NCBI GenBank assembly: GCA_965208575.1 | Contig: CBDBOV010000004.1 | Location: forward strand, 1,152,001-1,216,000 | Source of the DNA: Spirochaetia bacterium | GTDB lineage: Bacteria; Spirochaetota; Spirochaetia; SZUA-6; Bin103 | Reading direction: 5' to 3' | Length of the DNA stretch: 64,000 bases | In this document: positions 28,006 through 46,157 of the stretch, in pieces | How positions within the stretch are numbered: the first letter of the stretch is position 1 | Layout: the number at the start of each line of letters is the position of its first letter | Made by a program: the position numbers and the translations under genes | Notes under the pieces: model-generated | What the model was told of the DNA's origin: nothing | Database searches by the model: none | The model's input: only the letters and a program-made list of their open reading frames with translations

Positions 28006-29076
28006 TCAACGCAGTCCGGGTATCAGGTCGGCCGGGTTCAGATGGAGCTGGCCGCGGCGCAATTCGAAGTGCAGGTGGGGGCCGGTGGAACGCCCCGTGG
28101 AGCCGATGGCGCCGATCGCCTCGCCGCCGCTCACGCCCTCGCCGCGCGCCACGTAGATCCGGCTCAGGTGTGCGTACAGCGAGGAGTAGCCGGCGAAGTG
28201 GGCCACGATGATGTACTTGCCGAGCACGCCGTTCGATCCCACCGCCGCCACCCGGCCATCCTGCACCGAGTACACGCGGGTACCGTGCGGCGCGGCGATG
28301 TCGACGCCGCGATGCTGCCGCCAGCCGCCGGTGAACGGGTCTCTGCGCGGCCCGAACCGTGAACTGACCCAACCGGTCCGGGCCGGGCGCCCGAACGCGG
28401 TGCCGATCGCCAGGCTCAGTTCCCGTCCGGAATGCTGCACGCCGGGAAAGAACAGCTCCATGGAGGGCGTCAACTCCTCGCGCGTGATGTCGTTGGTGCG
28501 CAGCACCGCGTCCGGCAGCACGCCGCGCTCCCGGCACACCTCGTCGAGATCGGTGACCGTCAGGTATATGCCGTCCTGGTTGGGCACCTTGATCATCTCG
28601 CCGATGTCAAGCCGGTGCACGCCCATGCCCGCGGTGCGGTTCAGCGAAGCCACGGTATCGAGACTCAACCCGAAGCGATGGGCGATGCCGCTCATGGTAT
28701 CGCCGCGCCGCACCCGGTACTGCTTGATGTCGAGAATCATCGGCGCCACGTCCAGGCCGCCGCCGTGACCGCCGGCCGCGGCCGAAGCGCGTTCGGCGGA
28801 CTGCCCGGCGGCTTCGTTCAGCGATTCGATGGCAAGGGTCTCTAACCACTCGTTCGGGTAGTACAGGTACTCCTGCTGATCGTAGAGAGGCTCCGCGGCG
28901 GGGCGCGGCAGCGCAACCAGCGCCAGCACCAGTGCCGCCGCAAGCACCGATCCGACCGCGGCCCAGGGCGCGCTCGAAACACGCCTGCGCCTGCGCGGTC
29001 GGTTGATCGTTCTTAATCGAACACTGCGTCCATATCGATCAGTCCAGATATTCCTGCGGGTCGACGTGCGTTCCAT
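28006..29076 (-). CDS. LysM + M23 metallopeptidase
   Basis: TM anchor, YRVRRGDTMSGIA LysM, and the zinc motifs HRGVD, YAHL and STGPHLHFE. Confidence 0.92.
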   Translation of the reverse strand: MERTSTRRNIWTDRYGRSVRLRTINRPRRRRRVSSAPWAAVGSVLAAALVLALVALPRPAAEPLYDQQEYLYYPNEWLETLAIESLNEAAGQSAERASAAAGGHGGGLDVAPMILDIKQYRVRRGDTMSGIAHRFGLSLDTVASLNRTAGMGVHRLDIGEMIKVPNQDGIYLTVTDLDEVCRERGVLPDAVLRTNDITREELTPSMELFFPGVQHSGRELSLAIGTAFGRPARTGWVSSRFGPRRDPFTGGWRQHRGVDIAAPHGTRVYSVQDGRVAAVGSNGVLGKYIIVAHFAGYSSLYAHLSRIYVARGEGVSGGEAIGAIGSTGRSTGPHLHFELRRGQLHLNPADLIPGLR

Positions 29077-30313
29077 TCAAAAAAATCGAGAAATGAAGAT
29101 GGTTGCCGGTACTATAGCCGGTATTTCCCATCTCGCCAAGTTGTTGTCCCTGGCGCACGCGATCGCCCTGCGCGACATGCGTTCTCGCGAGATGCGCGTA
29201 CAGGGTCTGGAAGCCGTCCGGGTGGCGCAGGATGACGTAGCGCCCGTAATTGCCATTGTAGCCGGCCGACGCCACGACGCCGCTCATCGATGCAACTACC
29301 GGCGTGCCGGGCCCGTTTGCGATGTCGACCCCATTGTGAAACTTGCGCAACCCGGTGAATGGATCGTTGCGGTATCCGTACGGCGACGACAGGCGGCCCC
29401 GGGCGGGTGCTATGAACAGCCGTCCGAGCACTCGATTGCGCACGTTCTCGCTCAATCCGGCGCCCGGAATCAGCAAGATCTGCCCCGGAGTGATGATCGA
29501 ACTCGCCACCTCATTGACATCGAGGATGGCCTCCAGGCCGACCTCGTGGCGGGCCGCTATCCGGCTCAGATTGTCACCGCGGCGCACCACGTATCGAATT
29601 CCCGAGTGGCTCGGAATGACCAACTCCAGGCCGTCCTTCAGATCGCGCTCGCGGCGCAGTTCGTTGAAACTGATAATGGTGTCCAGGGTAACGTCGAAGC
29701 GCTCCGCGATTGCGCCGAGCGTGTCGCCCGCCGCGACCTCGTAGCGCCGGAACTGCACGCCGCCGTCGGCGTACTGCGCGGCCGGCACGGCAGCAGTCGA
29801 GGTGCGCTCGCCGGCGGGCGCGCCGAGGCTCAGAAGCGTGTCGATGAGCGCTTCCTGGAGGCGCCCGTCGGGCGGCAGCAACGCGGCCGCCGCGCTCGCG
29901 CGGTCGCGCACCACGGCGCCCGACGGCGCGTAGTACAGCAGCAGCCCCACGGCGGCGGCGGCGAACGCGGTCAGCGCAGCCGGCACCAGCAGCGGACGGA
30001 TGCCGCGCGTCGCCACCCGCGCCACCGCACGCGCCGCGGCGGCGCGCGTCGATTCCCACAGGTCGCCGGCCGCCGCCGCCCAGCGTGCGCCGTCGGCGGC
30101 CGGCGGGAGCACCACCGAGAGGGCTGCTCCTGCGCCCGGCACCGGCGCGGCCATGGCCGTGCCGGTGCTCAGTCCCTCTACCTGAACCGCCCGCTTGTGG
30201 CGGCGTGGATGCTGCTTGTGCAGCGCCAGACGGCGGCCGCGGCCGCCGCGGCGGCGCAGCCTGCGGCGTGCGACACGCTGGCCGCGCAGCGCGTGGTGGG
30301 CGAAGTCCCGCAT
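29039..30313 (-). CDS. 2x LysM + M23 metallopeptidase
   Basis: YEVAAGDTL, YVVRRGDNL, HNGVD, YAHL and STGNHLHF. Confidence 0.92.
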   Translation of the reverse strand: MRDFAHHALRGQRVARRRLRRRGGRGRRLALHKQHPRRHKRAVQVEGLSTGTAMAAPVPGAGAALSVVLPPAADGARWAAAAGDLWESTRAAAARAVARVATRGIRPLLVPAALTAFAAAAVGLLLYYAPSGAVVRDRASAAAALLPPDGRLQEALIDTLLSLGAPAGERTSTAAVPAAQYADGGVQFRRYEVAAGDTLGAIAERFDVTLDTIISFNELRRERDLKDGLELVIPSHSGIRYVVRRGDNLSRIAARHEVGLEAILDVNEVASSIITPGQILLIPGAGLSENVRNRVLGRLFIAPARGRLSSPYGYRNDPFTGLRKFHNGVDIANGPGTPVVASMSGVVASAGYNGNYGRYVILRHPDGFQTLYAHLARTHVAQGDRVRQGQQLGEMGNTGYSTGNHLHFSIFLNGTHVDPQEYLD

Positions 30314-30322
30314 TCATTTTGC

Positions 30323-30350
30323 ATATCGACACTTCGGACGCTCGCCATTA
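30323..30350 (-). promoter_or_regulatory. Putative sigma28 (FliA/SigD-type) promoter for the M23 peptidase pair
   Basis: TAAT-16 nt-GTCGATAT, compared with the consensus TAAA-N14-16-GCCGATAT. Confidence 0.5.
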
Positions 30351-30785
30351 CCGGCGCGGGGCGCGCGTGCCGGCGGCGAGGTTGACGATCAGCTCCACCT
30401 CGGCCGGGCTGGTGGCGAGATGGTCGACTATGGCGGCGTTGGACATTCCCATGCGGCGCAGGCGCAACACCTCCGCACGCCGGTCGGCGGACTCACGTGC
30501 AGGCCGGTCCGCCGGTGGCCGCTCGCTCGCGGCGGGCGCCGCGCCGACCTCGTCGACGCGCGCGAGCAGATCCTGCAGGCGACCGACCCCGTCCTCCAGC
30601 AGCGCCACGTTGCGCTCCGTGGCGGCATTCAGTTCGGTGACCAGGGCGGCAACTTCGGCACGCAGTTCGGACACCACGTCCGGATCGTTCATGCGGCGCG
30701 CCAGCGCCCGTCTCAGCAGCACGTAGAGGATCACCAATCCAGCCGCTTGCAACACCAGCAGAGCGATCACCATCGATCCCGCCAC
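30348..30785 (-). CDS. Single-pass membrane protein downstream of fliA (DUF6115/DUF2802/SwrB-like)
   Basis: N-terminal TM, a coiled coil (ELNAATERNVALLED) and an HTH-like C-terminus ending EVELIVNL. Confidence 0.65.
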   Translation of the reverse strand: MAGSMVIALLVLQAAGLVILYVLLRRALARRMNDPDVVSELRAEVAALVTELNAATERNVALLEDGVGRLQDLLARVDEVGAAPAASERPPADRPARESADRRAEVLRLRRMGMSNAAIVDHLATSPAEVELIVNLAAGTRAPRR

Positions 30786-30797
30786 GGCACAGCGCGT

Positions 30798-31610
30798 TCA
30801 GCTTATTCCGCGCTTCAGGTTGGTCAGTTTGGCGCGCAGCCGGATTATCGCCTTGGTGTGAAGCTGGGACACGCGCGACTCGGTGACCTGCAGCACTTCG
30901 CCGATCTCACGCAACGTCAAGTCCTCGTAGTAGTAGAGCGCCAACACGCGTTGTTCCTTCGCCGGCAACTCCTGCAGAGCCTCCAACATGACGCGCTTGA
31001 TCTCGTCCCGTTCGGCAATCGAGTCAGGGTTCAAACTGGACGGCGACTCGACACTCTCAGCGATCGAGATACGATCGCTGTCTTCGCTGTTGTAGCGCAG
31101 ATCGTTCAACGACATGACCGCGGTACTGCTGATCTTCAGGAGCAGATCCTGGAACTCCTTGAGCGTCAGATTCATCTCACGGGCGATCTCGGCGTCGACC
31201 GCCGAGCGGCCGAGCGTGGCCTCCAATTCGCGTACCGTATCTTCCACTTCACGCGCCTTTTGGCGGACCGATCTCGGTACCCAGTCGTTGCTGCGCAACT
31301 CGTCGAAGATGGCCCCGCGAATACGGGTCACGGCGTACGTCTTGAACTTGACGTGCTTGGACGGGTCGAACTTGTCGATCGCGTCGAACAGCCCGAATAC
31401 CCCATATCCGACCAGGTCGTCGAACTCCACGCTGCCGGGCATGCGAACCGCCACCTTGCCGGCAACATACTTCACCAGGGGCGCGTACTGGCGTACGAAG
31501 TAGTCGCGGATAGCCTGGTCCTTGCCGCGTCGATAGCTGGTCCAAAGCTGTTCTTCGGTCGCCTGGCTCAACGGCTCCGCCAAGCTTCGTTCACGGGTCT
31601 CAGGCGGCAT
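30798..31610 (-). CDS. fliA: RNA polymerase sigma28 factor (FliA/WhiG)
   Basis: YAPLVKYVA, DDLVGYG, FKTYAVTRIRGAIFDELR..DWVPRSVR and LTLREIGEVLQVTESRVSQLH. Confidence 0.96.
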   Translation of the reverse strand: MPPETRERSLAEPLSQATEEQLWTSYRRGKDQAIRDYFVRQYAPLVKYVAGKVAVRMPGSVEFDDLVGYGVFGLFDAIDKFDPSKHVKFKTYAVTRIRGAIFDELRSNDWVPRSVRQKAREVEDTVRELEATLGRSAVDAEIAREMNLTLKEFQDLLLKISSTAVMSLNDLRYNSEDSDRISIAESVESPSSLNPDSIAERDEIKRVMLEALQELPAKEQRVLALYYYEDLTLREIGEVLQVTESRVSQLHTKAIIRLRAKLTNLKRGIS

Positions 31611-31802: not shown

Positions 31803-33041
31803 TCACGGCTCACCGGCAGCCCCGACGACCACGCCGTTCGACGGCGCGTGCTCGCCGAACTCTTTCTCCAGCCAGGTGCGGCCGAGCCGGAAGCCATCCA
31901 GGTTCAGCAGCAGTTGCAACGTCGATGCGGGCGCGATGTCCTGCGGCACCACCTGGCCATCGCACAGGTAGGAGACCGGCTTGCGGGCGTCGGCGAGGGC
32001 CGCGATCACGTTGCCGACCGAACCGGTCTCGTCGAGCTTGGTCACGATCACGCTCTCGTAACCGAATGGCTCGAACTGCCGCACGATCTGCAGCAGGTCG
32101 GCTCCCTTCGTGGTCGCGCTTACCACGAGTTGGGTGGTGGCGCCGTGGCCCATCGCATCGAGCACGCTCCGCATCTGTGCGATGCGCGCGTAGTCGGTGG
32201 GACTGCGGCCCACGGTGTCGACGAATATGACGTCGGCGTCGCTGCCGAGGGCGATCGCCTTGCGCAACTCATCGGCGGTCTCGGCGGTGGTCACCGGAAT
32301 ACGCATGATGTCGCCGTACGTTTCGATCTGCGCTCGTGCCCCGATGCGGTAGTTGTCGATGGTCACGATGCGTACCGGCGGCGCCGGCACACCGTTGCCG
32401 AATCCGTGCAGCGCCGCCAGCTTGGCGATCGTGGTGGTCTTGCCGACCCCGGTCGGACCGACCAGGGTGCACACGCGCGGGCCGTCGGCCGGGGCGGGAA
32501 GCTGCTGCAGCGGCGGTGCGATCTTCAGCTCCGCGGCAATCTGCCGCACCACGAACCGGTGTACCGCGCCCTGATCCCGCAGGCTGGACACCGGCAGTTC
32601 GGTGCGCACCGCGTCGATCAGGCGGCCGCGCATCGGCGCCGCGAAGTCGTTGGCCGCGAGCAGCGCGCGCAACTCGGCGAGGGACGGGTGATCGTCGCGC
32701 CGCACGGTCACTTCCGATCCGGGCGGAAGCGATTCGTCCAACCGCTCCCGCAACGCCGCAACCTCGCCGAGCAGCCGGGCAAGACTGGGTGCCTGCTGCG
32801 CCCGCGCCGCCTCGCCGGCGACCGCGCGCGGCGCGCCGTCGTCCGCGGGCGGCGTGGTGGCGTCCGGCGGCGTGCCGTCGACGTAACCGGTAATCTCCAC
32901 GGCCGGACGCGCGAACAGCCCCAGCACGCCGCCGACGCGAACCGTGCGGTGGGACTGGATGCAGGCGTCGGGGCCGTACTTCCGCATCATCTCCGCCAGC
33001 GCCGCCTGCGAGTTGGCGCCGCGTACCGTGAAATAGCGCAT
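31803..33041 (-). CDS. flhF: Flagellar SRP-type GTPase FlhF
   Basis: [34 protein letters not shown] and GQVVPQDI. Confidence 0.95.
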   Translation of the reverse strand: MRYFTVRGANSQAALAEMMRKYGPDACIQSHRTVRVGGVLGLFARPAVEITGYVDGTPPDATTPPADDGAPRAVAGEAARAQQAPSLARLLGEVAALRERLDESLPPGSEVTVRRDDHPSLAELRALLAANDFAAPMRGRLIDAVRTELPVSSLRDQGAVHRFVVRQIAAELKIAPPLQQLPAPADGPRVCTLVGPTGVGKTTTIAKLAALHGFGNGVPAPPVRIVTIDNYRIGARAQIETYGDIMRIPVTTAETADELRKAIALGSDADVIFVDTVGRSPTDYARIAQMRSVLDAMGHGATTQLVVSATTKGADLLQIVRQFEPFGYESVIVTKLDETGSVGNVIAALADARKPVSYLCDGQVVPQDIAPASTLQLLLNLDGFRLGRTWLEKEFGEHAPSNGVVVGAAGEP

Positions 33042-33045
33042 CCCC

Positions 33046-35013
33046 TCAGCGCTCCTCTGCCCGGCCGCCCGCGGCGAGTCCCGACACCTCCGCGAGGCGG
33101 CGCACGGAGCGGGCGGCCGCCACCTCGCTGGTCGCCAGGCACACCAGGTCGGGTATGCGGCGCTCGGTACTGCGCTTCACCAGCGGCCGCACTTCCTCGG
33201 AAGCCAACACCGCCGGCCGGCAGTCCTGCCGCGCACTCTGCCCGAGGGTGGCGGCCAACTCCTCGACCCAGCGGCCGAACTCCGCCGCGGCGCCCGGCCG
33301 GAGGTCCTGCCCCGCCTGCGCGGCCAGCAGCTCCCGCTCCAGCTCCGGCGCCAGCGTGACCACGTGCAACACGCCCTGCGCGTCGCTGTGCTGCGCGCTG
33401 ATCTGGCGGCCGAGCGAGCGCCGCACCCGGCGCACCAGGTAGTCCACGTCGCGCTGCCGGCCGGCCTCGTCCGCGAGCGTCTCCAGTATGGTTACCAGGT
33501 CGCGGATCGATACCCGTTCACGCAACAGCCCCTGCAATACCGCGCGGATCTCGCCCACCGACAGCGCCGCGGTGGCCTCTTCCACCACCGTCGGACAGCT
33601 CTCGCGCAATTCGTCGATCATCGCCCGCACCTGGTCGCGGCCGAGCAGTTCCGCCGCGTGACGCATGAGGACGGCGCGGAACTGCCCCACCAGGGTATCC
33701 ACCGTGTCGGAGCAGCCGGCACCGGGACGGCAGCGTCCGCCGCCGGCTTCGACACCGCGAATCTTGAACCGGTACGCGGTGGGCGGAAGCTGCAGGTTGT
33801 CGGTAACGTGCAGCGCCGGCACCTGCAGCCCCCAGTCGCGCGCCGCCCGGTCGCGTACGCCGCGGGCGCCGCGCAGCAGCTCGGCGCCCGCATTCCCGTC
33901 GGTCGCCGCCAGCAGACCGTACCCCAGTTCCAGCGCCAACGCCGGCGGCAGCGCAGGCGCGGCCCCGCCGGCAGGGTTCGGCGCCGCCGTTGCCCCCGCG
34001 TCGGACGTCGGCGGCGCTGCTTCGGTACCAGGATTGCGCCGGCCGACCGCGCGGCCCAGCCCCGCCACCGCGCCGGCCAGCGGCAGCAACAACCAGGGCG
34101 GGAACCCGGGCAGCAGGCCGAGCAGGGCGAGAAAGCCGGCGGTGACGTAGAATGGACGGTCGTAGCGGGCGAGCTGCAGCGCGGCGTCGATCCCGAACGG
34201 CTGGTCCGAGGCGGCGCGCGTAACGATGATGCCGGTGGCGGTGGAGACGAGCAGCGCGGGAAGCTGGGTTACCAGCCCGTCGCCGATGGTCAGTGCGACG
34301 TAGTGATGCGCCGCGGATGCCAGGTCCTCGCCGTGCACGCTGACGCCGATGATGAAGCCGCCGGCGAGATTGACCGCGGTGATGAACAATGCCACCCGCA
34401 CGTTGCCGGCCACGAACTTGGAAGCACCGTCCATGGCACCGTAGAAGTCCGCCTGGCGCTGCAACTCCTGCTGCCGGAGCCGCGCCTGCGCCTCGGTGAG
34501 CCGCCCGGAGTGGTATTCCGCGTCGATCGCCATCTGCCGGCCGGGCAGGGCGTCGAGCGTGAAGCGCGCCGCCACCTCCGCCACCCGGGTCGATCCGCGC
34601 GTAATCACCACCACCTGCACGGCGATGATGATGATGAAGATGATCAGGCCGATCACCACCCCCGCGGTGCCGGAAGATCCGACCACGAAACTGCCGAACG
34701 CGCGCACGATGCGGCCGTCGAAGGCGGCCCCCTGCGACAGGATCAGCCGCGTCGAGGAGACATTGAGCGCCAGCCCGAACACGGTGGCCAACAGCAGCAA
34801 GGTAGGGAAGCTGCTGAACTCGGCGCTGTTGCGCACACTCAGCACGACCAGGATCACCAGCAGGCTGATGCCTATGTTGAGCGCCATGCCGAGGTCGAGC
34901 AGCACGGCCGGCAGCGGAATCAGCAGCATCAGCACCGCGACGCACACGAACACGGCGACCAGCGCGTCGCCGCGCTGCAGCCAGGCGCCGGAGGGATTGC
35001 CGGCCCTGCTCAT
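33046..35013 (-). CDS. flhA: Flagellar export gate protein FlhA (cytoplasmic domain internally shortened)
   Basis: FSSFPTLLL, RVAEVAARFTLDALPGRQMAID, FYGAMDGASKFV, TIGDGLVTQLPAL, LELGYGL and ERVSIRDL. Confidence 0.93.
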   Translation of the reverse strand: MSRAGNPSGAWLQRGDALVAVFVCVAVLMLLIPLPAVLLDLGMALNIGISLLVILVVLSVRNSAEFSSFPTLLLLATVFGLALNVSSTRLILSQGAAFDGRIVRAFGSFVVGSSGTAGVVIGLIIFIIIIAVQVVVITRGSTRVAEVAARFTLDALPGRQMAIDAEYHSGRLTEAQARLRQQELQRQADFYGAMDGASKFVAGNVRVALFITAVNLAGGFIIGVSVHGEDLASAAHHYVALTIGDGLVTQLPALLVSTATGIIVTRAASDQPFGIDAALQLARYDRPFYVTAGFLALLGLLPGFPPWLLLPLAGAVAGLGRAVGRRNPGTEAAPPTSDAGATAAPNPAGGAAPALPPALALELGYGLLAATDGNAGAELLRGARGVRDRAARDWGLQVPALHVTDNLQLPPTAYRFKIRGVEAGGGRCRPGAGCSDTVDTLVGQFRAVLMRHAAELLGRDQVRAMIDELRESCPTVVEEATAALSVGEIRAVLQGLLRERVSIRDLVTILETLADEAGRQRDVDYLVRRVRRSLGRQISAQHSDAQGVLHVVTLAPELERELLAAQAGQDLRPGAAAEFGRWVEELAATLGQSARQDCRPAVLASEEVRPLVKRSTERRIPDLVCLATSEVAAARSVRRLAEVSGLAAGGRAEER

Positions 35014-36140
35014 TGCGGCCACCGCACGCCTCCGAAACGCGCGCCGACGCCGGGCTCGCGGCGGTCGCGGCTCGCCGCGCCGTGCGCCGCCAGCATCGCG
35101 GCCACCGCCGGCTCGTACGACCGCGGGATGGGGTCGCCGAGCGCGACGCGGCGAAACAGGGCGCCGGCCAGCGCCGCGCGTTCGATCACGGCCACGCCGC
35201 TCGACTCGGCCGCCTGCCGCATCCGCGGTGCGCTGTCGGCAGCCGCCTTGGCGACCACCACCGGCGCGGTCATGGTGTCGGGGTCCCACCGCAAGGCCAC
35301 CACGGTACGCGCCGCGTCGGCGCACACCACGTCCGCGGCCGCGACCTGCTCGGCGGCCGTGCGCGCGAGCAGTGCGCGCGTGCGGGCGCGCAACCGATCG
35401 CGCACCATCGGGTCGCCCTCCTGCAGGCGCCGTTCCTCGCGCTCCCGTGCCACCGAACGGTGCGCCCGCCGGCGGGCGCGGAAATTGCGCAACAGGTAGT
35501 CGGCCGCCGCCAGCAGCAACAGGGCACCCGCCGCCTGCACGGCCAGGCGCAGCGCCGCGCCGTACGCCGCCTCGGCCATGGCTGCGCCGGCCGCGATCGC
35601 GCGCAGCGCGGCGCCGATGTTGAGCACCGCGATCACCGCCACCCCGCCCACCTTGAGCAGTTCCCGGCCGAGGCCGATCGCGGTGTCTGCCGACCACAGC
35701 CGGCGGCCGACGCGTCCCCAACTCGGGGTGATGCGGTGCCAGCGCGGCGTCACGCTTCGCAACCTGATCGGCAAACCTTGCTGGACGAGATGTCCGGCCA
35801 CGGCGCCCGCGATCGCTGCCGCCAGCAGCGGCGCCGCCAGCCGGCCCGCATGGCCGAGCGCCGCCGGCAGCAGGCCGGCCAGCGCGGCGGCGTCGCCCGC
35901 GGCCGCCACGCGACCGAAGCACAGGCGCAGCAATTCGCCGCCGGCGGCGGCGATGGCGGGGCCGGTCAGCGCCGCCGCGCCAATCCCGGCCAGCAGGATC
36001 ACCGCCGCGGTCACCTCCGGCGAGCGCACCGGCTCGGCGGAGTCGCGGGACGCACCGGCGCGCGCAGCGGACGCGCGCAGCCGATCGTCGGCGCCGGCCC
36101 GCCCGCCGCCGACGAGAGCGGACCGGAACGCGCCGCTCAC
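35010..36140 (-). CDS. flhB: Divergent FlhB lacking the NPTH autocleavage motif
   Basis: EGDPMVR, ADVV...VVALRWD, APVVVAK and LAGALF..V..GDPIP; located between fliR and flhA. Confidence 0.85.
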   Translation of the reverse strand: MSGAFRSALVGGGRAGADDRLRASAARAGASRDSAEPVRSPEVTAAVILLAGIGAAALTGPAIAAAGGELLRLCFGRVAAAGDAAALAGLLPAALGHAGRLAAPLLAAAIAGAVAGHLVQQGLPIRLRSVTPRWHRITPSWGRVGRRLWSADTAIGLGRELLKVGGVAVIAVLNIGAALRAIAAGAAMAEAAYGAALRLAVQAAGALLLLAAADYLLRNFRARRRAHRSVAREREERRLQEGDPMVRDRLRARTRALLARTAAEQVAAADVVCADAARTVVALRWDPDTMTAPVVVAKAAADSAPRMRQAAESSGVAVIERAALAGALFRRVALGDPIPRSYEPAVAAMLAAHGAASRDRREPGVGARFGGVRWPQ

Positions 36141-36970
36141 GGCACCGCTCCCGCGCCCGCCGGCGGCGTGGCCGTCAGCCCGTCCAGCATCCGGCGCAGC
36201 GTGGCAAAGCCGTCGTCGAGCGCCGCCGCGGCGGCGCTCAGCAGCAATGGCAGCGTGACCAGGAGGATCACCAGGCCGGCGCCGAGCGACAACGGCAGCC
36301 CCAGCATGAGCAGGTTCATGTGCGGCGCGACGCGCGCGAGCAGGGCAAGCGCGAGTGACACCAGCAGCAGTGCCGCGAATATCGGCAGCGCGATCGCCAT
36401 GGCGGTGCCGAACAGGCGCGCAAGGCTGCCCGCCACGGTGTGCAGCAGCAACCCGGCGCCGCGGCCCGTGCCGGCCGCGAAGCTCACCACCAGGTCGGCG
36501 GCGCGCAGGGCGTGAAAGGAACCCGCCACGCCGTCGAGCATCAGCCGGTGCAGTCCGCCCACCGACAGGAACGCCATCACGGCGAGCACGTGGAACAACT
36601 GGCCCAAAAGCGGAGAACGGCCCGCGGTGAACGGATCGAGCAGCTCGACCACGCCGAACCCGACGGGCAGCGAGATGAACGCGCCGGCGGTCTGCAGGGC
36701 GGTGAACCCCAGGAGCACCAGGAAGCCGAGCAGCACACCCACGAGCGCCTCGCCGAGCAGCAGCAACGCGAACTGTACCCCGGACGCCGGTACCGGGTAG
36801 CCGCCGGCGATCACCCCGGGCAGCGCTACCACGGCGATGAACAGCGCCAGCCCCAACCGCCCCGGTTGCGGAATGGCCGCCGACGAGAACAGCGGCGCCA
36901 CCTGCATCATCGCCACCACGCGCGCCAACACCAGCAGCCCGATCCCCAGGTCATCGGCAAGCAGCCGCAT
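36137..36970 (-). CDS. fliR: Flagellar export protein FliR
   Basis: LARV...APLFSS, GEALVG, TAGAFI, ALPI and RVAPHMNLLMLGLP. Confidence 0.9.
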   Translation of the reverse strand: MRLLADDLGIGLLVLARVVAMMQVAPLFSSAAIPQPGRLGLALFIAVVALPGVIAGGYPVPASGVQFALLLLGEALVGVLLGFLVLLGFTALQTAGAFISLPVGFGVVELLDPFTAGRSPLLGQLFHVLAVMAFLSVGGLHRLMLDGVAGSFHALRAADLVVSFAAGTGRGAGLLLHTVAGSLARLFGTAMAIALPIFAALLLVSLALALLARVAPHMNLLMLGLPLSLGAGLVILLVTLPLLLSAAAAALDDGFATLRRMLDGLTATPPAGAGAVP

Positions 36971-37257
36971 CACGGCCTCGCCGCCATGGCCGGGATGCTC
37001 TCGAACAACCGGGTAGTGAAGTCGATCATCGACGCCCCCAGCCACGGGCCCAACAGCAGGGCGACCCCGATGACCGCAAAGATCTTCGGCACGAAGGACA
37101 GCGTCTGCTCCTGGATCGAGGTGGCAGCCTGCACGATCGACACCACGAGCCCCACCAGCACGCTCGCCACCATCAGCGGCGCCGCCAGCACGAGGAGCTG
37201 CAGCACCGCCTCGCGCGCCAGGGTCACGACGGTACCGAGCGTCATCGCCGCCGCCAT
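36970..37257 (-). CDS. fliQ: Flagellar export protein FliQ
   Basis: VGLVVSIVQAATSIQEQTLSFVPKI. Confidence 0.96.
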   Translation of the reverse strand: MAAAMTLGTVVTLAREAVLQLLVLAAPLMVASVLVGLVVSIVQAATSIQEQTLSFVPKIFAVIGVALLLGPWLGASMIDFTTRLFESIPAMAARP

Positions 37258-38102
37258 CAGCGGAAACTCTCGATCAGTTGCATGACCAGCAGATCCCAGC
37301 CATCGACCAGTACGAACAGCACCAGCTTGAACGGCAGCGAAATGAGCACCGGGGGAAGTACGATGATCCCCATCGAGATCAGCGTGGTGGCCACCACCAT
37401 GTCGATGATCACGAACGGAATGAATATGAGCACGCCTATTTTGAATGCCACGGTGAGCTCATGCAGAATGAACGCCGGGATCAGGATGTAAGTGGGCACG
37501 TCGGCGCGCGTGTTCGGCTTGGGCAGATCGCGCATGCTCATGAACAGGCGGATGTTGTCGGCGTCGTTGCCGAGCTGGCGAAACATGAATTCGCGTACCG
37601 GGGCCTGGGCGCGTTGCAACAGCTCCTGCCCGTGCAGCTCGCCGCGCGAGAACGGCTGCAGGGCGTCGCGGTTGATCGCCTCGAAGGTCGGCCACATGAT
37701 GAACGCGGTCAGAAACAGGGCTACGCCCATCAACACCTGGTTGGGCGGCATGTCGGTGAGCGAAAGCGCGCGCTTCACGAACTGCAGCACGATGGCAAGG
37801 CGCAGGAACGAGGTAGTCAGGATCACGATCGACGGCGCCAGCGACAGCACCGCGAGCAGCAGCAGCAACTGCAGCGACAGCGCCAGCTCCTGATTGGTGT
37901 ACGCGTCGCGCAGGCTGAGGTCCAGGAACGGCACGCTGCTGACGGCCGGCGCCGCGGCGGCTGCGATGCCCGCGGCCGCGGCAGCCGCCGCGTCGGGCGC
38001 GGGCGCCGGCGTCTGCGCCGCCACCGGGGCGGCGATGAGCAACGCCGCGCACAAGGCCGCGCCGGCGGCAGCACGGCGGCGCAGGATGCTAGGTAGCCGC
38101 AC
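37257..38102 (-). CDS. fliP: Flagellar export pore protein FliP
   Basis: LAPSI..LTTSFLR, PPNQVL, IPAFILHEL..AFKIG and ISLPFKLVLFVLVDGW; GTG start with a GGAGG RBS. Confidence 0.96.
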   Translation of the reverse strand: MRLPSILRRRAAAGAALCAALLIAAPVAAQTPAPAPDAAAAAAAGIAAAAAPAVSSVPFLDLSLRDAYTNQELALSLQLLLLLAVLSLAPSIVILTTSFLRLAIVLQFVKRALSLTDMPPNQVLMGVALFLTAFIMWPTFEAINRDALQPFSRGELHGQELLQRAQAPVREFMFRQLGNDADNIRLFMSMRDLPKPNTRADVPTYILIPAFILHELTVAFKIGVLIFIPFVIIDMVVATTLISMGIIVLPPVLISLPFKLVLFVLVDGWDLLVMQLIESFR

Positions 38103-39036
38103 GGACCTCTTCCTCCACCGCCGGGGTGCGGCCCAGGCGGCGCGCGCGATCCCGTTGGCGGGGCGCCCGATCACCCAGGCGGCGCGCTCGATCCCGTTGG
38201 AGGGGCGCCCGATCCCGTTGGAGGGGCGCCCGATCCCGTTGGAGGGGCGCCCGATCCCGTTGGAGGGGCGCCCGATCCCGTTGGAGGGGCGCCCGATCCC
38301 GTTGGAGGGGTGCCCGATCCCGCTGGAGGGGCGCCCGATCACCCAGGCGGCGCGCCCGCTCCCGCTGCCGGCGCAGGAACGCGGTGTGGCCGGAGTCCGC
38401 GCTGCGCGCATCGGAGGGCGTGCCGATGCCGGCCTCGGCGAGCAGGTCGGCAAACCGGCTGCGCGCGGAAGCGCCCTGCCCGGCGGGGTGCGCCGCGAGC
38501 CGATCGAGGCGCTCGGGATCGGTGATCTCGGCCACCAGGTTTACCGCCTGGTCGCCGGCTCCCACCAGGTAGTAGCCGCCGGCCGCACGCACCAGGTGCA
38601 GGCTGCGGTTGCCGCCGAGCGAACGCGAACCGAGCACGGCGATCAGCTCGCTGTTGCCGAGCCGGCCCGCGGCGCCGCGCCGGAAGAGCCGGAACAGCAG
38701 GTAGATCGCGCCGAGCACCGCGGCAAGCACCACCACCATGCGCACGAAGTCGCCGGTCGAGACCACGCCGCCGGCCGCGGCGCCGGAGGTGCGGCCGGCC
38801 TCGGGCAGCGGCGTCGCGTCGACCGGCGGCGCGCCGGCAACCGACGCCTGTGGCTGCGGTTGCGGCTGCTGCGCGGACAACGGACACACCGCGACCAGCA
38901 GCGCGCCCGCGATCAGCAGCGCCGGAGCACCGATGGCAGAGCGCCGCGCACGCTTGGTCGAAGCGCGGGCGGCTGTCGCGTTGTACAGGTCTGTTCCCCT
39001 CCCAGGAACGCAGCCTTGCGTCCTTTCCTTCGCCAT
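38089..39036 (-). CDS. fliO: FliO/FliZ-type export chaperone with a repeat-expanded C-terminus
   Basis: TM (FVRMVVVLAAVLGAIYL), SLGGNRSLHLVRA...YLVGAGDQAVNLVAEI, and position immediately before fliP. Confidence 0.85.
   Translation of the reverse strand: MAKERTQGCVPGRGTDLYNATAARASTKRARRSAIGAPALLIAGALLVAVCPLSAQQPQPQPQASVAGAPPVDATPLPEAGRTSGAAAGGVVSTGDFVRMVVVLAAVLGAIYLLFRLFRRGAAGRLGNSELIAVLGSRSLGGNRSLHLVRAAGGYYLVGAGDQAVNLVAEITDPERLDRLAAHPAGQGASARSRFADLLAEAGIGTPSDARSADSGHTAFLRRQRERARRLGDRAPLQRDRAPLQRDRAPLQRDRAPLQRDRAPLQRDRAPLQRDRAPLQRDRARRLGDRAPRQRDRARRLGRTPAVEEEVRAAT
38148..38340 (-). repeat. 21-bp tandem repeat x7 (DRAPLQR) in the fliO 3' end, plus degenerate flanking copies
   Basis: CGATCCCGTTGGAGGGGCGCC occurs seven times on the plus strand at 38189-38335. 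Confidence 0.95.
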
Positions 39037-39044
39037 CGCCGGCG

Positions 39045-39953
39045 CTATCGGTCTCTCCCCCCGGAGTCAAGAATCTCCGTGACCCGGATGCCGTAACTGT
39101 CTTCCAATGCCACGACCCGCCCGCGCGCGACCGGCTCGCGGTTCATCTCGATCGCGACCGACTGGCCGGCGAATCGACTCATGCCGATTACCATGCCCTC
39201 GTCGAGGGCGGGCGCGCCGCCGCTGCGCAGCCCGCCGGCGCCCAGTTCAACGGTCACCATGGCATCGGCGCGAGCGGCGCGCGACGGTCGCGGCGGCGCC
39301 ACTTCGCGGGCCAGCAAGCGGTGGCCGATCGCCGCCAGACTTGCCTCCGCCACCGCCAGGTACAGTTGGCCCTCCTGTCCGCCGGCGGCCGCCGCGAAGG
39401 TGGCGCACACCAGCCGGGTGTCCGGCGCCGGCAGTTCGGTGGTGTCGGCCTGCCGCTCGAGGTACTCGAGGCGCGGTACGACGCCGCACACCGGCGCCCA
39501 CGCGCGCTGCAGGTCGGGCAGCAGCGCCGCGATGCCGCGCCGCAGCACCATGCCCTCGATCTCGCTCAAGCCGCGCTCCGGCACCATGGGTACGCCGCGC
39601 CCGCCCAGCAGCCGGTCGATCAGCAGGAATGCAAGCACCCGGTCGACGGCAAACAGCGCCGCCCCCGGCAGCGGGTCGAGCGCCACGCCCGCCAGCGCCG
39701 CCGGCGCCCACCGGGCTCGCAGTTCACTGCATGACCGGCGCTCCGCCGCGGCAAGCCGAACCCGGCACGGCGTGCGCACGAGCGTGCTGAGCGACTCGGA
39801 GGCGAAGCGCGCGAATCGGCGATGTACCGCGCTCACGATGGCGACCTGCTCGCCGGCCAGCGGCCCCGCGCCGGACGGCAAACCGCCGGGGGGCATACTG
39901 CCGGACGGCATACTGCCGGACGACCAGCGGTCATGCGGCACGCCCTCACCCAT
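39045..39953 (-). CDS. FliM middle domain plus FliN-type SPOA domain (C-ring chimera); start uncertain
   Basis: EQVAIVSAVHRRFAR..SLS, LDPLPG and IDRLLGG..LSEIE are FliM-like; VELG...GRVVALEDSYGIRVTEI is FliN-like. Confidence 0.75.
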   Translation of the reverse strand: MGEGVPHDRWSSGSMPSGSMPPGGLPSGAGPLAGEQVAIVSAVHRRFARFASESLSTLVRTPCRVRLAAAERRSCSELRARWAPAALAGVALDPLPGAALFAVDRVLAFLLIDRLLGGRGVPMVPERGLSEIEGMVLRRGIAALLPDLQRAWAPVCGVVPRLEYLERQADTTELPAPDTRLVCATFAAAAGGQEGQLYLAVAEASLAAIGHRLLAREVAPPRPSRAARADAMVTVELGAGGLRSGGAPALDEGMVIGMSRFAGQSVAIEMNREPVARGRVVALEDSYGIRVTEILDSGGRDR

Positions 39954-40080
39954 CGGCGCCCCCGGCGCCCGGCCGGCAAGGCGCGACGAATGCGCACACC
40001 GGTGGTACGCGAGCGGGGAGCAACGCAGCCAGCCGGGAGGGATCGCCGCGTTCATGCAGCCGGAGTTGCGCCATCGGCTG

Positions 40081-41718
40081 CTAGTCCTCGACCAGCCACC
40101 GGCGCAGCGCGCGCGCCGCGTCTTGCGGTCGCCGGCGGGCCAGGTGCTCGGCGCTGCGGCGCATCTGCTCCTGGTCCGCCAGGCCACCCGGTCTCCCGGT
40201 CCCGAACACCCGCGTCGCGCTGCTCAAGCGCGCCGTGCCGCCGGCGGCGCGCGCCGCCCGGCGGCGGCGCTGCCGCCGGCGCACCACCACGACCAGGGCG
40301 AGCAGCAGCAGCGCGGCGGCCGCCGCGGCGGCCGCCGGCAACATGCTCAGCAGCCATGCCTCCCGGCGCAGCAGCACGTCTTCCTGCGCGAACTGACTGC
40401 TGCGGTCGAACTGCAGATGCTCCACCGTGACCGAGTCGCCACGCTGCCGGTCCCAGCCGATGGCGTCCTGAACCAGCAGCGTCGCCTTGCGCAACTCGTC
40501 GCCGGGAACCGGGGTGTACGTGCGCCGCACGCTGCCGTCCTGGTTCAGGGCGACGCCGCCGTCGGGCCGGAACTCGGTGCGCCACACGCCGTCGAGGGCC
40601 ACGCTCACCGTGATGCGGTTGATCGCCCAGGGGCTCTCCTCGCGCACCGTGTTGCGCCGGTTCACCACCTCGCTGCGGCTCGTCGAGCGGCGCTCGTAGT
40701 GCTCGCCGGCAGCGCCGTCGCCGCTGCTCCTGGTCTCCGTCTCCTCGTCCTCGGCGACCGTGATCGAGGGCACCCGCAGCGCTTCGTCGGCGTCGGTGAG
40801 CGGATCGTCCTCGCGCAAGGCGATCGGGAAATGCTCCTCCGTGGTGGTCGACTGCGAAGACAGGTCGAGGTCGATGTCGAGGCGGACGATCTGCACCCGG
40901 TCGGCGGAGAAGATATTGCCGAGGGCGGCGACGATTTCCCGCGTGTAGCGCTGCTCCAAGCCGTACTTGGTATCCAGTTGGCGCTCCACCAGGGTCATCC
41001 GGCTGCGTCCCGAAACGCCGCCCGGATCGTTCACCTGGACGCCGCGAGGATCGAGGATCACGATGTGCTCGGCGCTCAGGCCGGCCACCGCAAACTGTAC
41101 GAGCCGCTGGATGCCGTGCACCCGATGGTGGTCGTCGAGAATCCCGGAGCCCTGGCGGGGCGTTATCACGATGGAAGCGGTGGTAGGGAGTTGATCCTCC
41201 GCGAACAGTTCGCGTTCCGGCACTACCAGGGTGACGTGGGCGGCGGCGACGTCGTCGAGCGCCTCGAGGTGCTGTTCGAGGCTGCGCGTGAGGGCGCGCT
41301 GAAGGTTGACGCTGCGTTCGAAGTCGGTGACCGAGAATCGCCCGAGGTCGAATATCGAGAACGGGTCGGTTTGCGAGGGTACCAGGTCTTCGCGAATCAG
41401 GATGCCGCGCAACCGGCGCGCCGAGTCCTGGTCGGACACGAAGATGCGGTCACCGGCGCGGATTTCGTACTCCACGCCTTCCTGATCGAGCCGGCCGGCG
41501 ATGCGCAGCAGTTGCCCGGCGTCCTCGACGGGGGCATTGATCAGTGGCACCATCCGCACACCGGCGTTCAATGGCCCGCCCTCGCGTGATGCCCCGATCA
41601 ACCCAGCGGCGACCACCGCGACGGCGAGCGCGCCGCCGAGCGACCAACGCTGCGCCCCGGTCAATCTGCCCCAAAAGCCAAACGCCTGTTGCCGCATACG
41701 CGGCAGTACGTCGAGCAT
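40081..41718 (-). CDS. fliF: Flagellar MS-ring protein FliF
   Basis: Two TM segments, TDFER.VN.QRAL, AHVTLVVPERELF, VQFAVAGL..E.IVILD, RITVSVALDG and RGDSVTV. Confidence 0.93.
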   Translation of the reverse strand: MLDVLPRMRQQAFGFWGRLTGAQRWSLGGALAVAVVAAGLIGASREGGPLNAGVRMVPLINAPVEDAGQLLRIAGRLDQEGVEYEIRAGDRIFVSDQDSARRLRGILIREDLVPSQTDPFSIFDLGRFSVTDFERSVNLQRALTRSLEQHLEALDDVAAAHVTLVVPERELFAEDQLPTTASIVITPRQGSGILDDHHRVHGIQRLVQFAVAGLSAEHIVILDPRGVQVNDPGGVSGRSRMTLVERQLDTKYGLEQRYTREIVAALGNIFSADRVQIVRLDIDLDLSSQSTTTEEHFPIALREDDPLTDADEALRVPSITVAEDEETETRSSGDGAAGEHYERRSTSRSEVVNRRNTVREESPWAINRITVSVALDGVWRTEFRPDGGVALNQDGSVRRTYTPVPGDELRKATLLVQDAIGWDRQRGDSVTVEHLQFDRSSQFAQEDVLLRREAWLLSMLPAAAAAAAALLLLALVVVVRRRQRRRRAARAAGGTARLSSATRVFGTGRPGGLADQEQMRRSAEHLARRRPQDAARALRRWLVED

Positions 41719-41795
41719 GTTCCCCTCCCACGGCACGGATCGACTTGCCGCCGCCGCAGGGTAGACGGCCGCGGACAAGCCCTTCCGGTACCATA

Positions 41796-41859: not shown

Positions 41860-43284
41860 CTAAAGGATGAACCGCGTCAGGTCGCGATCTTCTATTATCT
41901 TGACCAACCGTTCGTCCACGTAGCCGGTCGTAATGGTAACGGTCTGGCCCTTCAGATCGGGCGCGTTGAAGGACAGATCCTCGAGCAGATGCTCCATGAT
42001 GGTGTGCAGGCGGCGCGCACCGATGTTCTCGGTGCTGCGGTTCACTTCCGCGGCCAGTTCCGACAACCGGTCGACCGCGTCATCGGTGAATACCAGGGTC
42101 ACGTCCTCGGTGGCGAGCAGCGCCTCGTACTGGGTAATCAACGCGTTGCGCGGCTGTGTGAGAATGCGTTTGAAGTCGTCGCGACCGAGATCGTCGAGCT
42201 CGACACGAATCGGAAAGCGGCCCTGCAGTTCGGGGATCAGGTCGGATGGTTTGCTCATGTGAAACGCGCCGGCGGCAATGAACAGGACGTGCGCGGTGTC
42301 GACCACTCCCCACTTGGTGGTTACCGTACTTCCTTCGACGATCGGCAGTATGTCACGCTGTACCCCTTCACGGGAAACGTCGGCGCCGCCGCGGGTGTCC
42401 TTGGCCGCCACCTTGTCGATTTCGTCGAGGAAGATTATTCCCATCTGCTCGACGCGTTCGATCGCCAGCTCCGACACACGCTCCTTGTCGACCAGCCGGT
42501 CGATCTCCTCGGCCATCAGGATCGCGCGCGCGCGGCGGATCGGCACCTTCTTCTTTTTCTTGCGGCCACCAAACAAATTGCCAAGACTGCCGAGATTGAT
42601 GTCCATCTCCTCGAAGCTCTGACCGGAGAAGATTTCGATTGCCGGTCCGCTGCTGTCGGCGACGCTCACCTCGACCAGCTTGTCCTCCAGCTCGCCCGCC
42701 CGAAGACGCTCGCGAAACCTGTTTACCGTGCCGTTTTCCGGCGCCGCGGGAGACGCGGTGGGCGGCGGCGGCGGCGGCGCAAACCCGGCCGGCGTTGCGG
42801 CCGGCGTTGCGGCCGGTGCTGCGGCCGTCTGCGGCTTCCTGGGCTGGCCCGGCGACAGACCGGGCAGCAGCAACTCGATGAGCTGCTGTTCGACGCGATT
42901 CTCGGCCTCTTCCTGAATGCCTTCCTGCAACTCGGTCTTGACCATCGACACCGCCACCGAGGCGAGATCGCGCACCATCGACTCGACGTCGCGGCCGACA
43001 TACCCGACCTCGGTGTACTTGGTGGCCTCCACCTTGACGAACGGCGCTCGGCACAGCTTCGCCAGGCGGCGCGCAATCTCGGTTTTGCCGACACCCGTGG
43101 GACCGATCAGGATGATGTTCTTCGGCGTAACCTCATCGCGCAACTCGTCCGGCAACTTGCGCCGGCGCAGGCGATTGCGGAGCGCAATCGCAACCGCTTT
43201 CTTGGCTTGTTGCTGGCCCACGATGTAGCGGTCGAGCTCGCTCACGATCTCGGTCGGGCTGAGCTTGTCCAGGTCGATGCTCAT
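41860..43284 (-). CDS. hslU: ATP-dependent protease ATPase subunit HslU
   Basis: [41 protein letters not shown] and [10 protein letters not shown]. Confidence 0.98.
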
Positions 43285-43808
43285 GACAGCTCCTCGACGG
43301 TGATTTCTCGGTTGGTGTACACGCAAATGTCGGCCGCGATCTGCAACGAACGGACCGCGATGTCGCGTGGGCCGTGGTCGGAGCTGTCCAGGAAGGCGCG
43401 CGCGGCGGCCAGGGCGTAGTTACCCCCGGAACCGATGGCGATGGCGCCGTGATCGGGCTCCAGCACATCGCCGTTGCCGGAGATGAGCAGGGTCTTGCCG
43501 GCATCGGCCGCCAGCAGCAGCGCCTCCAGGCGACGCAGCAGGCGGTCCGATCGCCACTCCCGCGCCAGCTCCACCGACGCCCGCGTCAGGTCGCCGCCAA
43601 ATTCCTTCACCTTGCCTTCGAACCGGTCGAACAGCGTGAACGCATCCGCCGTGCCACCCGCGAACCCGACCAGGATAGCACCGTCGGCGATCGCGCGCAC
43701 CTTGCGCGCGCCGCCCTTGACGATGGTCGCGTCCATGGTCACCTGACCGTCGCCGGCCATCGCCACCCGCGTGCCGCGGCGCACGGCGACGATCGTCGTA
43801 CCGTGCAT
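43281..43808 (-). CDS. hslV: ATP-dependent protease subunit HslV
   Basis: [32 protein letters not shown] and ICVYTN. Confidence 0.97.
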
Positions 43809-43855
43809 TGCCGTTCCAAGCATTGAATTGCCGTACATGGAAGTACCTGCTCCCC

Positions 43856-45043: not shown

Positions 45044-45045
45044 CC

Positions 45046-46125
45046 TCACCTTTCGGTTCCGTCGATTCCGCGATCGTCGCCGGCAGCGGCGATGCCGCCG
45101 TGCGCCGGTGCCGCCCGCCCGGCCTGCTCGGCGGCAAACATCCTTGCCAGCCACGTTCCCGCGGCACGCTGCCGGGGCGGCGGCGCCAGCGTACGCAGCC
45201 GCCCGCCGCCGCCGAGCGGATGCGGCACGCCGGCCTCGCGCAACACGTCGCCGGCATCGGTCGCCGGCAGCGCCCCCTCCTCGACCAACTGCGCACCGCC
45301 CGCGGCACGCGGCCCGTCCAGACCGTCCGCCGCCACCAGCACGTCGCGGCCCTGGTCGGCCGCGCAACGCGCCGTGATGAGAGCCCCCGACCGGGCCGGC
45401 GCCTCGACCACGACCACCGCACGGCTCAGACCCGCCACGATGCGGTTGCGCTGGGGGAAATGGTGCGCGAGCGGCGCCACTCCGGGTGGGAACTCGCTCA
45501 CCAGACAGCCGCTCCGCAGGATCCGCATTGCCACCTCCCGGCTGCTCGCGGGGTAGATCCGGTCGATGCCGCAACCGAGCACCGCGACCGTGGCGCACCC
45601 CTCACCCCGCCAGCCGGCCAGACTGCCGCGGTGGACCTCCAGGTCGATCCCGCGCGCCAGACCCGAAACCGACGTGACCCCGGCACGCGCCAAGTCGAAA
45701 CCGAACGCATACGCGGTCCATCGGCCGCGACCGGTGGGCTGCCGCGTGCCCACCACCGACACCAGCGGCGCCGGCGGCGGCGGCAGGCGGCCGCCGCGAT
45801 GAAAGAGTACTACCGGTGGATCGAAAATCTCCCGCAGGATCCGCGGGTAGCGGGGCTCCCACAGAAAAGTGCACTGCCACACCTCTCGGGTCAAGCGTTC
45901 GGCATCGGCGCGGGCGCGCTCCAGCCATGTGGACGGCGAGAGCGTCGGCTTGCGCAGCCGCCGCCCCAGCAGCGCCGCCAGCCGCTCCGCCGACAGGTCG
46001 GCGAACTCGGCCAGCCGACAGCGGCGCAGCACCGTGCAGCGCTCGATCGGCCGCAGGAAAGACATTCTCGCCAGCGCCAGCGCAAGCAGCCGGCGCGCAC
46101 CAGGTTCTCGTTCTGCCCATCTCAC
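45046..46125 (-). CDS. dprA: DNA-processing protein DprA (Smf)
   Basis: [36 protein letters not shown] and SGALITA. Confidence 0.95.
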
Positions 46126-46157
46126 GCCTCATATAACGGAATCGGAACCGTCGCGCT

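Follow-up and report, generated by a model that had tools for sequence, protein, structure and literature searches.

The window analysed here is a stretch of 64,000 nucleotides from a Spirochaetia bacterium (GTDB lineage Bacteria; Spirochaetota; Spirochaetia; SZUA-6; Bin103; assembly GCA_965208575.1, contig CBDBOV010000004.1, positions 1,152,001 to 1,216,000), and the gene in question is its flhB, which codes for a subunit of the flagellar type III export gate. The product is probably the FlhB orthologue of a non-flagellated genus from sponge and marine metagenomes, in which the autocleavage site is lost and the protein is kept within a flagellar remnant of 11 genes (FliF, FliG, FliM, FliO, FliP, FliQ, FliR, FlhB, FlhA, FlhF and a sigma-28 factor). 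The window has a G+C content of 70%. Its genome (G000) is assembled in 6 contigs of 6.5 Mb in total, with 95.2% completeness and 5.75% contamination. Genus g1 is the genus of this genome, g2 is a sister genus in the same family, and G026 is a flagellated relative.

The cleavage site of FlhB

FlhB is encoded at positions 35010-36140 on the minus strand (376 amino acids), as delimited by open reading frame (ORF) calls, Pfam, a structure model searched with Foldseek, and the gene junctions. The ORF matches the Pfam family Bac_export_2 (PF01312) with an E-value of 1e-54 and 186.5 bits (cut-off 24.4), residues 23-351 aligning to profile positions 7-333 of 335, i.e. over nearly the full length. It starts with a GTG that overlaps the stop codon of fliR (GTGA, 36140-36137) and ends with a TGA that overlaps the ATG of flhA (ATGA, 35013-35010); fliR, flhB and flhA are joined by these 4-nucleotide start/stop overlaps.

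The position of the autocleavage site (35307-35318, minus strand) is occupied by the codons GAC GCG GCG CGT, which encode D275, A276, A277 and R278, so the NP.H loop of a self-cleaving switch is absent. An ungapped replacement of NPTH by DAAR had been noted in a preliminary description of this DNA, and both a phmmer comparison with FlhB sequences of the PDB and an alignment of the clade bear it out. In the former, ADVVCADAARTVVALRWD aligns without gaps to advvitNPEHfavaikwd (12du), advivtNPTHysvalqyd (36hu) and advivtNPEHfsvalryk (8z5s). With a constant offset of 6 against the 383-residue FlhB of PDB 36hu, D275-A276-A277-R278 correspond to N269-P270-T271-H272. The N-terminal KTE-PT motif, described earlier as unrecognisable, is likewise missing: [KR]TE.[PA]T is present in 10/10 outgroup FlhB and absent from the N-terminal cytoplasmic segment of the window FlhB (residues 1-40; 36021-36140, minus strand), as in its closer relatives. 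Only the deepest clade members retain RTVAP or RTEPP at the N terminus. Directly after the position of the lost motif, the window FlhB retains PVRSPEV (canonical G.v.RS.E).

The FliK-triggered export switch depends on autocleavage between N269 and P270, and uncleaved FlhB mutants still export early substrates, which results in polyhooks, according to PMC9307174 and PMC13639345. For EscU, PMC3189125 describes N262A as uncleaved with very low secretion and P263A as partly cleaved. Because both Asn and Pro are gone, the window FlhB would be predicted to stay uncut.

Two contigs from an RNA-library run cover parts of flhB (216 nucleotides at 35210-35422 with 9 differences, and 198 nucleotides at 36100-36291); such libraries can contain carried-over DNA, and the contigs give at most a hint of transcription.

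Fold and docking pocket

In FlhB of the window, four long helices in the N-terminal part are followed by a linker that contains EGDP and then by the FlhB-C fold. An AlphaFold2 model of the whole protein, built from an alignment of 28 rows, has a predicted template modelling score (pTM) of 0.40, with low to medium confidence in the membrane part. The mean predicted local distance difference test score (pLDDT) is 69.9 and reaches 84-94 over residues 251-350. Helices 41-80, 90-121, 151-183 and 188-226 of the model correspond to the four-helix N-terminal domain, and the former cleavage loop lies between strands 271-275 and 279-284. The best Foldseek matches are the C domains of YscU, FlhB and EscU (target-normalised TM-scores 0.69-0.93, E-values down to 7e-07); many of the top matches are uncut mutants in which Asn is replaced by Ala or Asp, or Pro by Ala. 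The FlhB chain of 6s3l is also matched.

Early substrates dock to Salmonella FlhB in a hydrophobic pocket of A286, P287, A341 and L344, as given in PMC9307174. All 18 of the 18 aligned FlhB of the clade have the same residues at the positions of A286, P287 and A341, and a hydrophobic one at that of L344. On the model and the alignment of pocket residues, FlhB-C retains both its fold and the substrate-docking pocket.

Compared with canonical FlhB (36hu, 383 residues; FlhB-C 3b0z; core 6s3l; the spirochaete-like 12du), the window protein has the same Pfam family, the same length and the same place between fliR and flhA. It also shares the four membrane helices, the linker with EGDP, the fold of FlhB-C and the hydrophobic pocket for docking. 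It differs in lacking Asn-Pro, with no self-cleavage expected, and the N-terminal KTE.PT, and it occurs in a genome without FliK, the ATPase or any known substrate. Engineered counterparts are FlhB N269A/P270A, EscU N262A/P263A and YscU N263A (PDB 2v5g, 2jlh, 3bzp, 3c03), in which the nucleophile or the Pro is likewise gone and the fold unchanged; their structures are among the top matches of the window FlhB model. These mutants fail to switch and yield polyhooks or very low effector secretion, according to PMC9307174, PMC3189125 and PMC13639345. They are, however, single laboratory substitutions in complete machines, whereas here all four positions have drifted naturally and rod, hook and filament are gone.

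Loss of Asn-Pro in the clade and beyond

A search of 5.8 billion proteins yielded 39 matches to the window FlhB at E <= 1e-5. Among these, 29 are 48-100% identical to the query, one of them bearing an NCBI name that begins 'MAG: EscU/YscU/HrcU ... [Spirochae', and the other 10 are distant (27-39%). The query and 27 of the 39 matches (28 of 40 sequences) were aligned, comprising 18 clade and 10 distant rows. Asn-Pro is absent from all 18 clade sequences, which read DAAR, DPAR, DAER, GAAR, AAAR, ATGR, HGDL or HGDR, and present in all 10 distant ones (9 NPTH, 1 NPAE). Likewise, none of the 10 full-length FlhB of g1 (G000 included) has Asn-Pro, and 12 flagellated genomes from seven other families of the same order possess NPTH (11) or NPVH (1).

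The preliminary description had left open sequencing errors at the DAAR codons and a second flhB. Contigs of three other sponge or marine metagenome studies (X3, X4, X5) cover positions 35266-35434 and read DASR or DSAR at the site codons, none of them NP. Since the loss is conserved in 10/10 g1 and 18/18 clade FlhB, chance or sequencing error is excluded as the source of DAAR, and an artefact of sequencing or assembly, for which the odds are negligible, is already refuted by the same change in 10 genomes, 18 proteins and the contigs of three other studies. The Bac_export_2 profile search of G000 gave a single match, so that a second flhB was not found. The first three positions of the motif vary freely: besides DAAR, DPAR, DAER, GAAR, AAAR, ATGR and HGDR, the forms HGER, GGAR, DGRR, DASR and DSAR occur.

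All 12 flagellated relatives carry, in addition, a free ORF of about 80-120 amino acids that matches only FlhB positions 262-335 and starts just past the NPTH point. A short free gene of this FlhB-CC-like kind was not found in G000 or the other non-flagellated genomes, except for the doubtful bin G002.

When 1.84 billion cluster representatives were searched exhaustively with HMMER, 5286 relatives were found at E <= 0.001. The query and the best 150 of these, a sample biased to query-like sequences, were surveyed for the motif: NP is present in 140 of 151, NP.H in 109 and NPTH in 86. In view of these figures, to have called NPTH invariant was an overstatement. Of the 11 sequences without NP, 5 are members of this clade (P0001, P0006, P0042, P0044 and P0116, which is a fragment) and 6 occur elsewhere (P0053, P0127, P0161, P0171, P0174 and P0184). 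On a FastTree phylogeny of 150 rows (P0116, with less than 250 residues, was left out), the presence or absence of Asn-Pro needs no fewer than 4 changes, of which well-supported branches require 3. The loss recurs in other lineages, with at least 3-4 origins among the 150 representatives. In the same query-biased survey, the fourth motif position is not His in 31 of 151 FlhB (NPTE 11, NPTR 5, and others). NPTH would appear to be a looser signature than usually stated, with Asn-Pro as the near-constant core.

No description of a natural FlhB or SctU without NPTH, nor of flagellar gene loss in sponge spirochaetes, was found in a literature search whose coverage left out most subscription journals and supplements.

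Missing flagellar components

That no hook or filament is built, as proposed earlier, agrees with the gene content: no rod, hook or filament genes were found in G000. Profiles of Flagellin_N and Flg_bb_rod give no match in G000 and in 17/18 other genomes of the family that were searched, four single-contig g1 genomes included, and 3-5 or 5 matches per genome in 12/12 genomes of other families. The exception is G002 (81% complete, 510 contigs). Alone in the family, it carries flagellin, rod and a short gene of the FlhB-CC-like kind, but neither a full flhB nor flhA was found in it. The G+C content of its contig with the FlhB-CC-like gene is 65.5%, and that of the flhB loci in other g1 genomes is 69-72%; G002 may be a mixed bin or a flagellated member of the family.

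The profiles of FliE, FliK (Flg_hook), FliH, T3SS-ATPase-C (T3SS, type III secretion system) and Flg_bbr_C have no match in G000. The flagellar cluster of G026 was also cut out and annotated with Pfam, and its proteins were compared with G000 by tblastn. Matches were obtained for FliF (39% identity), FliG (48%), FliQ, FliR, FlhA (46%), FlhF (47%) and the sigma-28-type factor (75%); FlhB and FliP of the window were established by Pfam and not by this comparison. No match was obtained for FlgB, FlgC, FliE, FliH, FliJ, FliK, FlgD and FlgE, nor for FlbD, MotA, MotB, FliL, a separate FliN, FapA, CheW and CheA. FliI of G026 matches only V/F-type ATPase subunits of G000 (29-31% identity), and its MinD-like FlhG has only weak partial matches elsewhere in the genome. 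A complete export apparatus with the FliH-FliI-FliJ complex is therefore not present among the genes detected in G000, and neither the ruler (FliK/SctP) nor the two classes of substrates were recovered from this 95% complete genome.

These absences bear on the non-switching gate proposed in the preliminary description, according to which the protein would be locked in early mode. The first half holds up in so far as autocleavage would not be expected without Asn and Pro. The second does not describe the situation, as FlgB, FlgC, FliE, FlgD, FlgE, the ruler FliK and FliH/I/J were not found either; because early substrates, FliK and FliH/I/J are missing too, the switch is obsolete rather than stuck.

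Selection on the remnant

The full-length FlhB of g1 are intact in 10/10 cases (357-383 amino acids), despite a divergence down to about 40% identity, with synonymous distances of 0.7-1.2. Third codon positions have about 85-95% G+C, for which reason a maximum likelihood (ML) codon model (GY+F3X4) was added within g1, for FlhB with 10 taxa and 326 gap-free codons. The ML estimate of omega (dN/dS) is 0.195 for the whole of FlhB, 0.213 for its N-terminal part and 0.165 for the C domain, taken from EGDP on. If omega is held at 1, the log-likelihood of the whole protein drops from -7048.7 to -7356.0 (by 307; twice the difference, 2*delta-lnL, ~615) and that of the C domain from -2260.7 to -2382.3 (by 122; 2*delta-lnL ~243). 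For the remaining genes, omega is 0.043 (FliQ), 0.047 (FliP), 0.088 (FlhA, with columns mostly of the membrane domain), 0.100 (FlhF), 0.108 (FliR), 0.111 (FliF), 0.163 (FliM), 0.170 (FliO) and 0.056 (sigma-28 factor), with 0.054 for HslV.

Purifying selection acts on every gene of the remnant, and the constraint on FliP and FliQ equals that of housekeeping genes. FlhB is the most relaxed gene of the remnant, yet far from neutral, and is not a pseudogene. Pairwise dN/dS values of hslU for pairs with the genome G001 (1.67 and 1.94) were dropped as an artefact of alignment or reading frame.

Erosion of the sorting domains

FlhA does not possess the full four-subdomain cytoplasmic ring: its match to the FHIPEP family is split into positions 2-405 and ~450-654. 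The ~45 residues in question (their place in flhA of the window is at 33680-33725) are present in flagellated G026 and in g2, and absent from all g1 FlhA; we take them to be probably subdomain D2 of FlhA-C, which adjoins the site where chaperones dock. In G009 and G010, FlhA ends at about residue 480 and flhF follows directly, FlhB-C still being kept.

In the sister genus, flhA is present in only 3/13 genomes (10/13 lack it), and flhB in 3/8 genomes searched (5/8 lack it), every copy without the C domain and one with an in-frame TGA. The three g2 clusters contain fliF, fliO, fliP, fliQ, fliR and the sigma factor, together with a full-length flhA and an flhB that stops just behind the linker; fliM and flhF were not found in the cluster of these three core-keeping genomes. 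FliG was not found in any of the 8 g2 genomes searched. The C-terminal part of FliF is kept where FliG is present (g1) and absent where FliG was not found (g2). Of the 24 genomes of the family, 10 of the 11 in g1 (G000 included) and 3 in g2 keep the core. As judged from gene content, the family forms a series from complete flagella, through a core with uncut FlhB and shortened FlhA, and a core without FlhB-C, to nothing.

Interpretation of the remnant

The reading that we consider probable, a retained FlhB orthologue with a lost site, may be put as follows. With FliK as the ruler, FliH/I/J and every known substrate, early or late, gone, selection on switching would have been relaxed and the site lost. 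The first three motif positions would then drift freely once the switch is obsolete, whereas the FlhB subunit, fold and pocket are retained by purifying selection within a strongly constrained membrane core. We infer that the protein stays uncleaved and that the inner membrane still houses an assembled remnant.

Several observations weigh against this reading. FlhB is the least constrained gene of the remnant, with an omega of 0.195 versus 0.027 in the flagellated set (on a saturated tree of length 39). Pairwise NG86 (Nei-Gojobori) dN/dS values of FlhB amount to 0.28-0.57. Their upper bootstrap limits stay below 1, the closest pair having an upper 95% limit of 0.87, and the values for two pairs from the flagellated relatives are 0.16-0.19. 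We treat the pairwise values as inflated by the extreme bias in third-position G+C and prefer the ML values. Asp at the first motif position could in principle permit slow chemistry, other members of the clade having Gly, Ala or His. The shortening of FlhA throughout g1, more extensive in G009 and G010, together with the loss of the C domain from g2 FlhB, is an erosion of cytoplasmic sorting domains that argues against ordinary type III export. Finally, the remnant can be lost, because most g2 genomes are without flhA or flhB and the remaining flhB copies, including that with the TGA, are without the C domain.

As to the role of the remnant, a one-mode export conduit into the periplasm, without ordering, is quite conceivable; a role other than export, e.g. 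in a complex at the cell pole or in the membrane, or as a path for ions, is conceivable as well; and that it does nothing of use seems rather unlikely. As the evidence stands, single-mode periplasmic export and a role outside export have about the same probability.

The former role has a stricter version, in which the gate is an active exporter held permanently in early mode that passes one class of substrates, with a signal binding the FlhB pocket, to the periplasm. This is offered tentatively. The pocket is conserved in 18/18 clade FlhB, FlhB-C is under purifying selection (omega 0.165), FliP and FliQ are constrained like housekeeping genes, FliO is retained, and uncleaved mutants of model systems still export early substrates and form polyhooks (PMC9307174). 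Early substrate genes, FliK and the ATPase were, however, not found in G000, and the docking ring of FlhA-C is without ~45 residues genus-wide and mostly missing in G009 and G010, where FlhB-C is kept. Nor was a candidate substrate found: the adjoining M23/LysM peptidases were considered as type III substrates and rejected, both having N-terminal hydrophobic membrane anchors as judged by eye.

A remnant that no longer exports, FlhB being structural and the complex serving as a polar landmark (FlhF-FliF-FliG-FliM), an FlhA ion path or a partner of sigma-28, is likewise offered tentatively. It is consistent with the distribution of constraint, the membrane parts being best conserved (FliP 0.047, FliQ 0.043, FlhA 0.088) while sorting domains erode, with the way in which the C-terminal part of FliF tracks the presence of FliG between g1 and g2, and with a sigma factor 75% identical to that of the flagellated relative (omega 0.056). 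A membrane-only structural role would, however, need neither FlhB-C nor FlhA-C, and FlhB-C and most of FlhA-C are under selection in most g1. For FlgM, an anti-sigma factor whose export might have explained why the gate is kept, the best match in G000 is below threshold (E 0.025, 17.9 bits, cut-off 25), in a search that is uninformative in so far as its control also fired in archaea. Scanning the entire genome for sigma-28 promoters with a simple consensus gave 0-2 matches, none convincing, and there is no citable precedent for such a role.

A functionless relic heading for deletion, with DAAR as ordinary decay, is improbable and for g1 already disfavoured. The relic reading draws on the end state in g2, where 10/13 genomes are without flhA, 5/8 are without flhB and one copy has an in-frame TGA, and on FlhB being the fastest-evolving gene of the remnant with freely varying motif positions 1-3. 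Neutrality is, however, rejected for FlhB (~615) and its C domain (~243), all 10 full-length g1 copies are intact after divergence to about 40% identity, and FliP and FliQ are at housekeeping constraint; neutral decay is unlikely for g1.

Cleavage or switching by another route, be it slow Asp chemistry, a protease or a separate FlhB-CC, is highly improbable. N-to-D mutants of YscU and EscU cleave slowly and have solved structures (2w0r, 3bzs), Asp is at position 1 of the window FlhB and many relatives, and flagellated relatives carry the free FlhB-CC-like gene; in other members, however, position 1 is Gly, Ala or His, Pro occurs in DPAR forms only, and G000 has neither a free FlhB-CC gene nor a FliK that would trigger a switch among the genes found.

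Under the preferred reading of a retained, uncut FlhB, the self-cleavage that is treated as universal in type III export would have been lost naturally at N269/P270, and an uncut FlhB kept for long under selection in a lineage with only the membrane core of the flagellum. The roles of FlhB would thereby be separated, the switch being dispensable once there is nothing to order, and the subunit, fold and pocket not. The real puzzle is the housekeeping-level constraint on FliP and FliQ in a cell without rod, hook, filament and ATPase. The graded series within the family can be used for asking which parts of the gate depend on which, and what use a "half motor" has. More speculatively, g1 might have turned the stripped core (MS ring, C ring, FliOPQR-FlhB-FlhA and FlhF) into a new inner-membrane machine, without switch and ATPase, that has a job of its own in a sponge symbiont, be it the export of one class of proteins into the periplasm or a task other than secretion. 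If true, the flagellar export core would have been exapted a second time, independently of the injectisome, and the process would be seen here at an early stage.

Buchnera aphidicola, which forms basal bodies without a filament, keeps rod, hook and ATPase genes. It is comparable in being a host-associated non-swimmer that expresses basal-body and type III export genes (PMC8109811); the present remnant is, however, much smaller and resides in a 6.5-Mb genome. Non-flagellar type III secretion systems also share flagellar descent, the loss of motility parts and the retention of the FliF/FliPQR/FlhAB core (Abby and Rocha 2012, PMC3459982). Injectisomes, in contrast, keep the ATPase and the NPTH of SctU and have gained needle and secretin; these features are absent here, the secretin not having been searched for.

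Gene order and neighbouring genes

The order of genes in the window is hslV-hslU followed by fliF-fliM-fliO-fliP-fliQ-fliR-flhB-flhA-flhF-sigma28, all flagellar genes being on the minus strand. It is identical, including fliP-fliQ-fliR-flhB-flhA, in 7/7 g1 relatives, of which 16 kb each were fetched. The MS ring gene fliF (40081-41778) lies directly after hslVU. In flagellated G026, fliF is surrounded by flgB, flgC, fliE and fliG-fliJ, which are missing from the fliF locus of the window. A recombinase of the xerC/D type, dprA, a second recombinase, hslV and hslU (43281-47114) precede the flagellar genes, presumably the arrangement of Bacillus and other spirochaetes; the order is kept although flgB, flgC and fliE behind hslU are gone.

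The next gene is fliM (39045-40187), with a FliN-type C-terminal domain that is the sole FliMN_C match in the genome. It is followed by fliO (38089-39036; PF04347, E 2.7e-12), which usually helps FliP assemble, with a C-terminal tail of DRAPLQR repeats. These are encoded by a 21-bp tandem repeat in 9.5 copies at 38142-38340 (90% match). In the close relative G006, FliO residues 235-284 are left out of the tblastn match, and the copy number of DRAPLQR therefore seems to differ between strains. The longest ORF of fliP extends over 37257-38453 (PF00813, E 7.3e-71); since the FliP domain starts only at residue 199 of this ORF of 398 residues, the true start is probably near 38100. fliQ (36970-37257; PF01313, E 2.5e-27) and fliR (36137-37045; PF01311, E 1.3e-51) lead to flhB.

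On the other side of flhB, flhA (33046-35013) starts with an ATG at 35013-35011 and has a well conserved membrane domain. It is followed by flhF (31803-33041), a GTPase of the signal recognition particle (SRP) type with 47% identity to FlhF of G026, and by the sigma-28-type factor (30798-31610), a FliA orthologue by synteny. This factor, with 75% identity to the copy of G026 and an omega of 0.056, is far better conserved than the adjoining flagellar genes and probably now controls other genes.

The fliG of the genome is complete, with N, M and C domains, and stands alone among unrelated genes on another contig (G000:C5:1154669-1155631; L042 6636-7682), with the gene of a DDE transposase at a distance of ~1.9 kb.

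Next to the sigma-factor gene throughout the genus is that of a 145-residue protein (30348-30785 in the window), which possesses an N-terminal membrane helix, a C-terminal end resembling a helix-turn-helix, and no Pfam match; a counterpart of 32% identity is located in the G026 cluster, downstream of the sigma-factor gene. Directly downstream of the remnant, two genes of membrane-anchored proteins with LysM and M23 peptidase domains are found (28006-30313), which are syntenic in the fetched g1 relatives and in one g2 genome.

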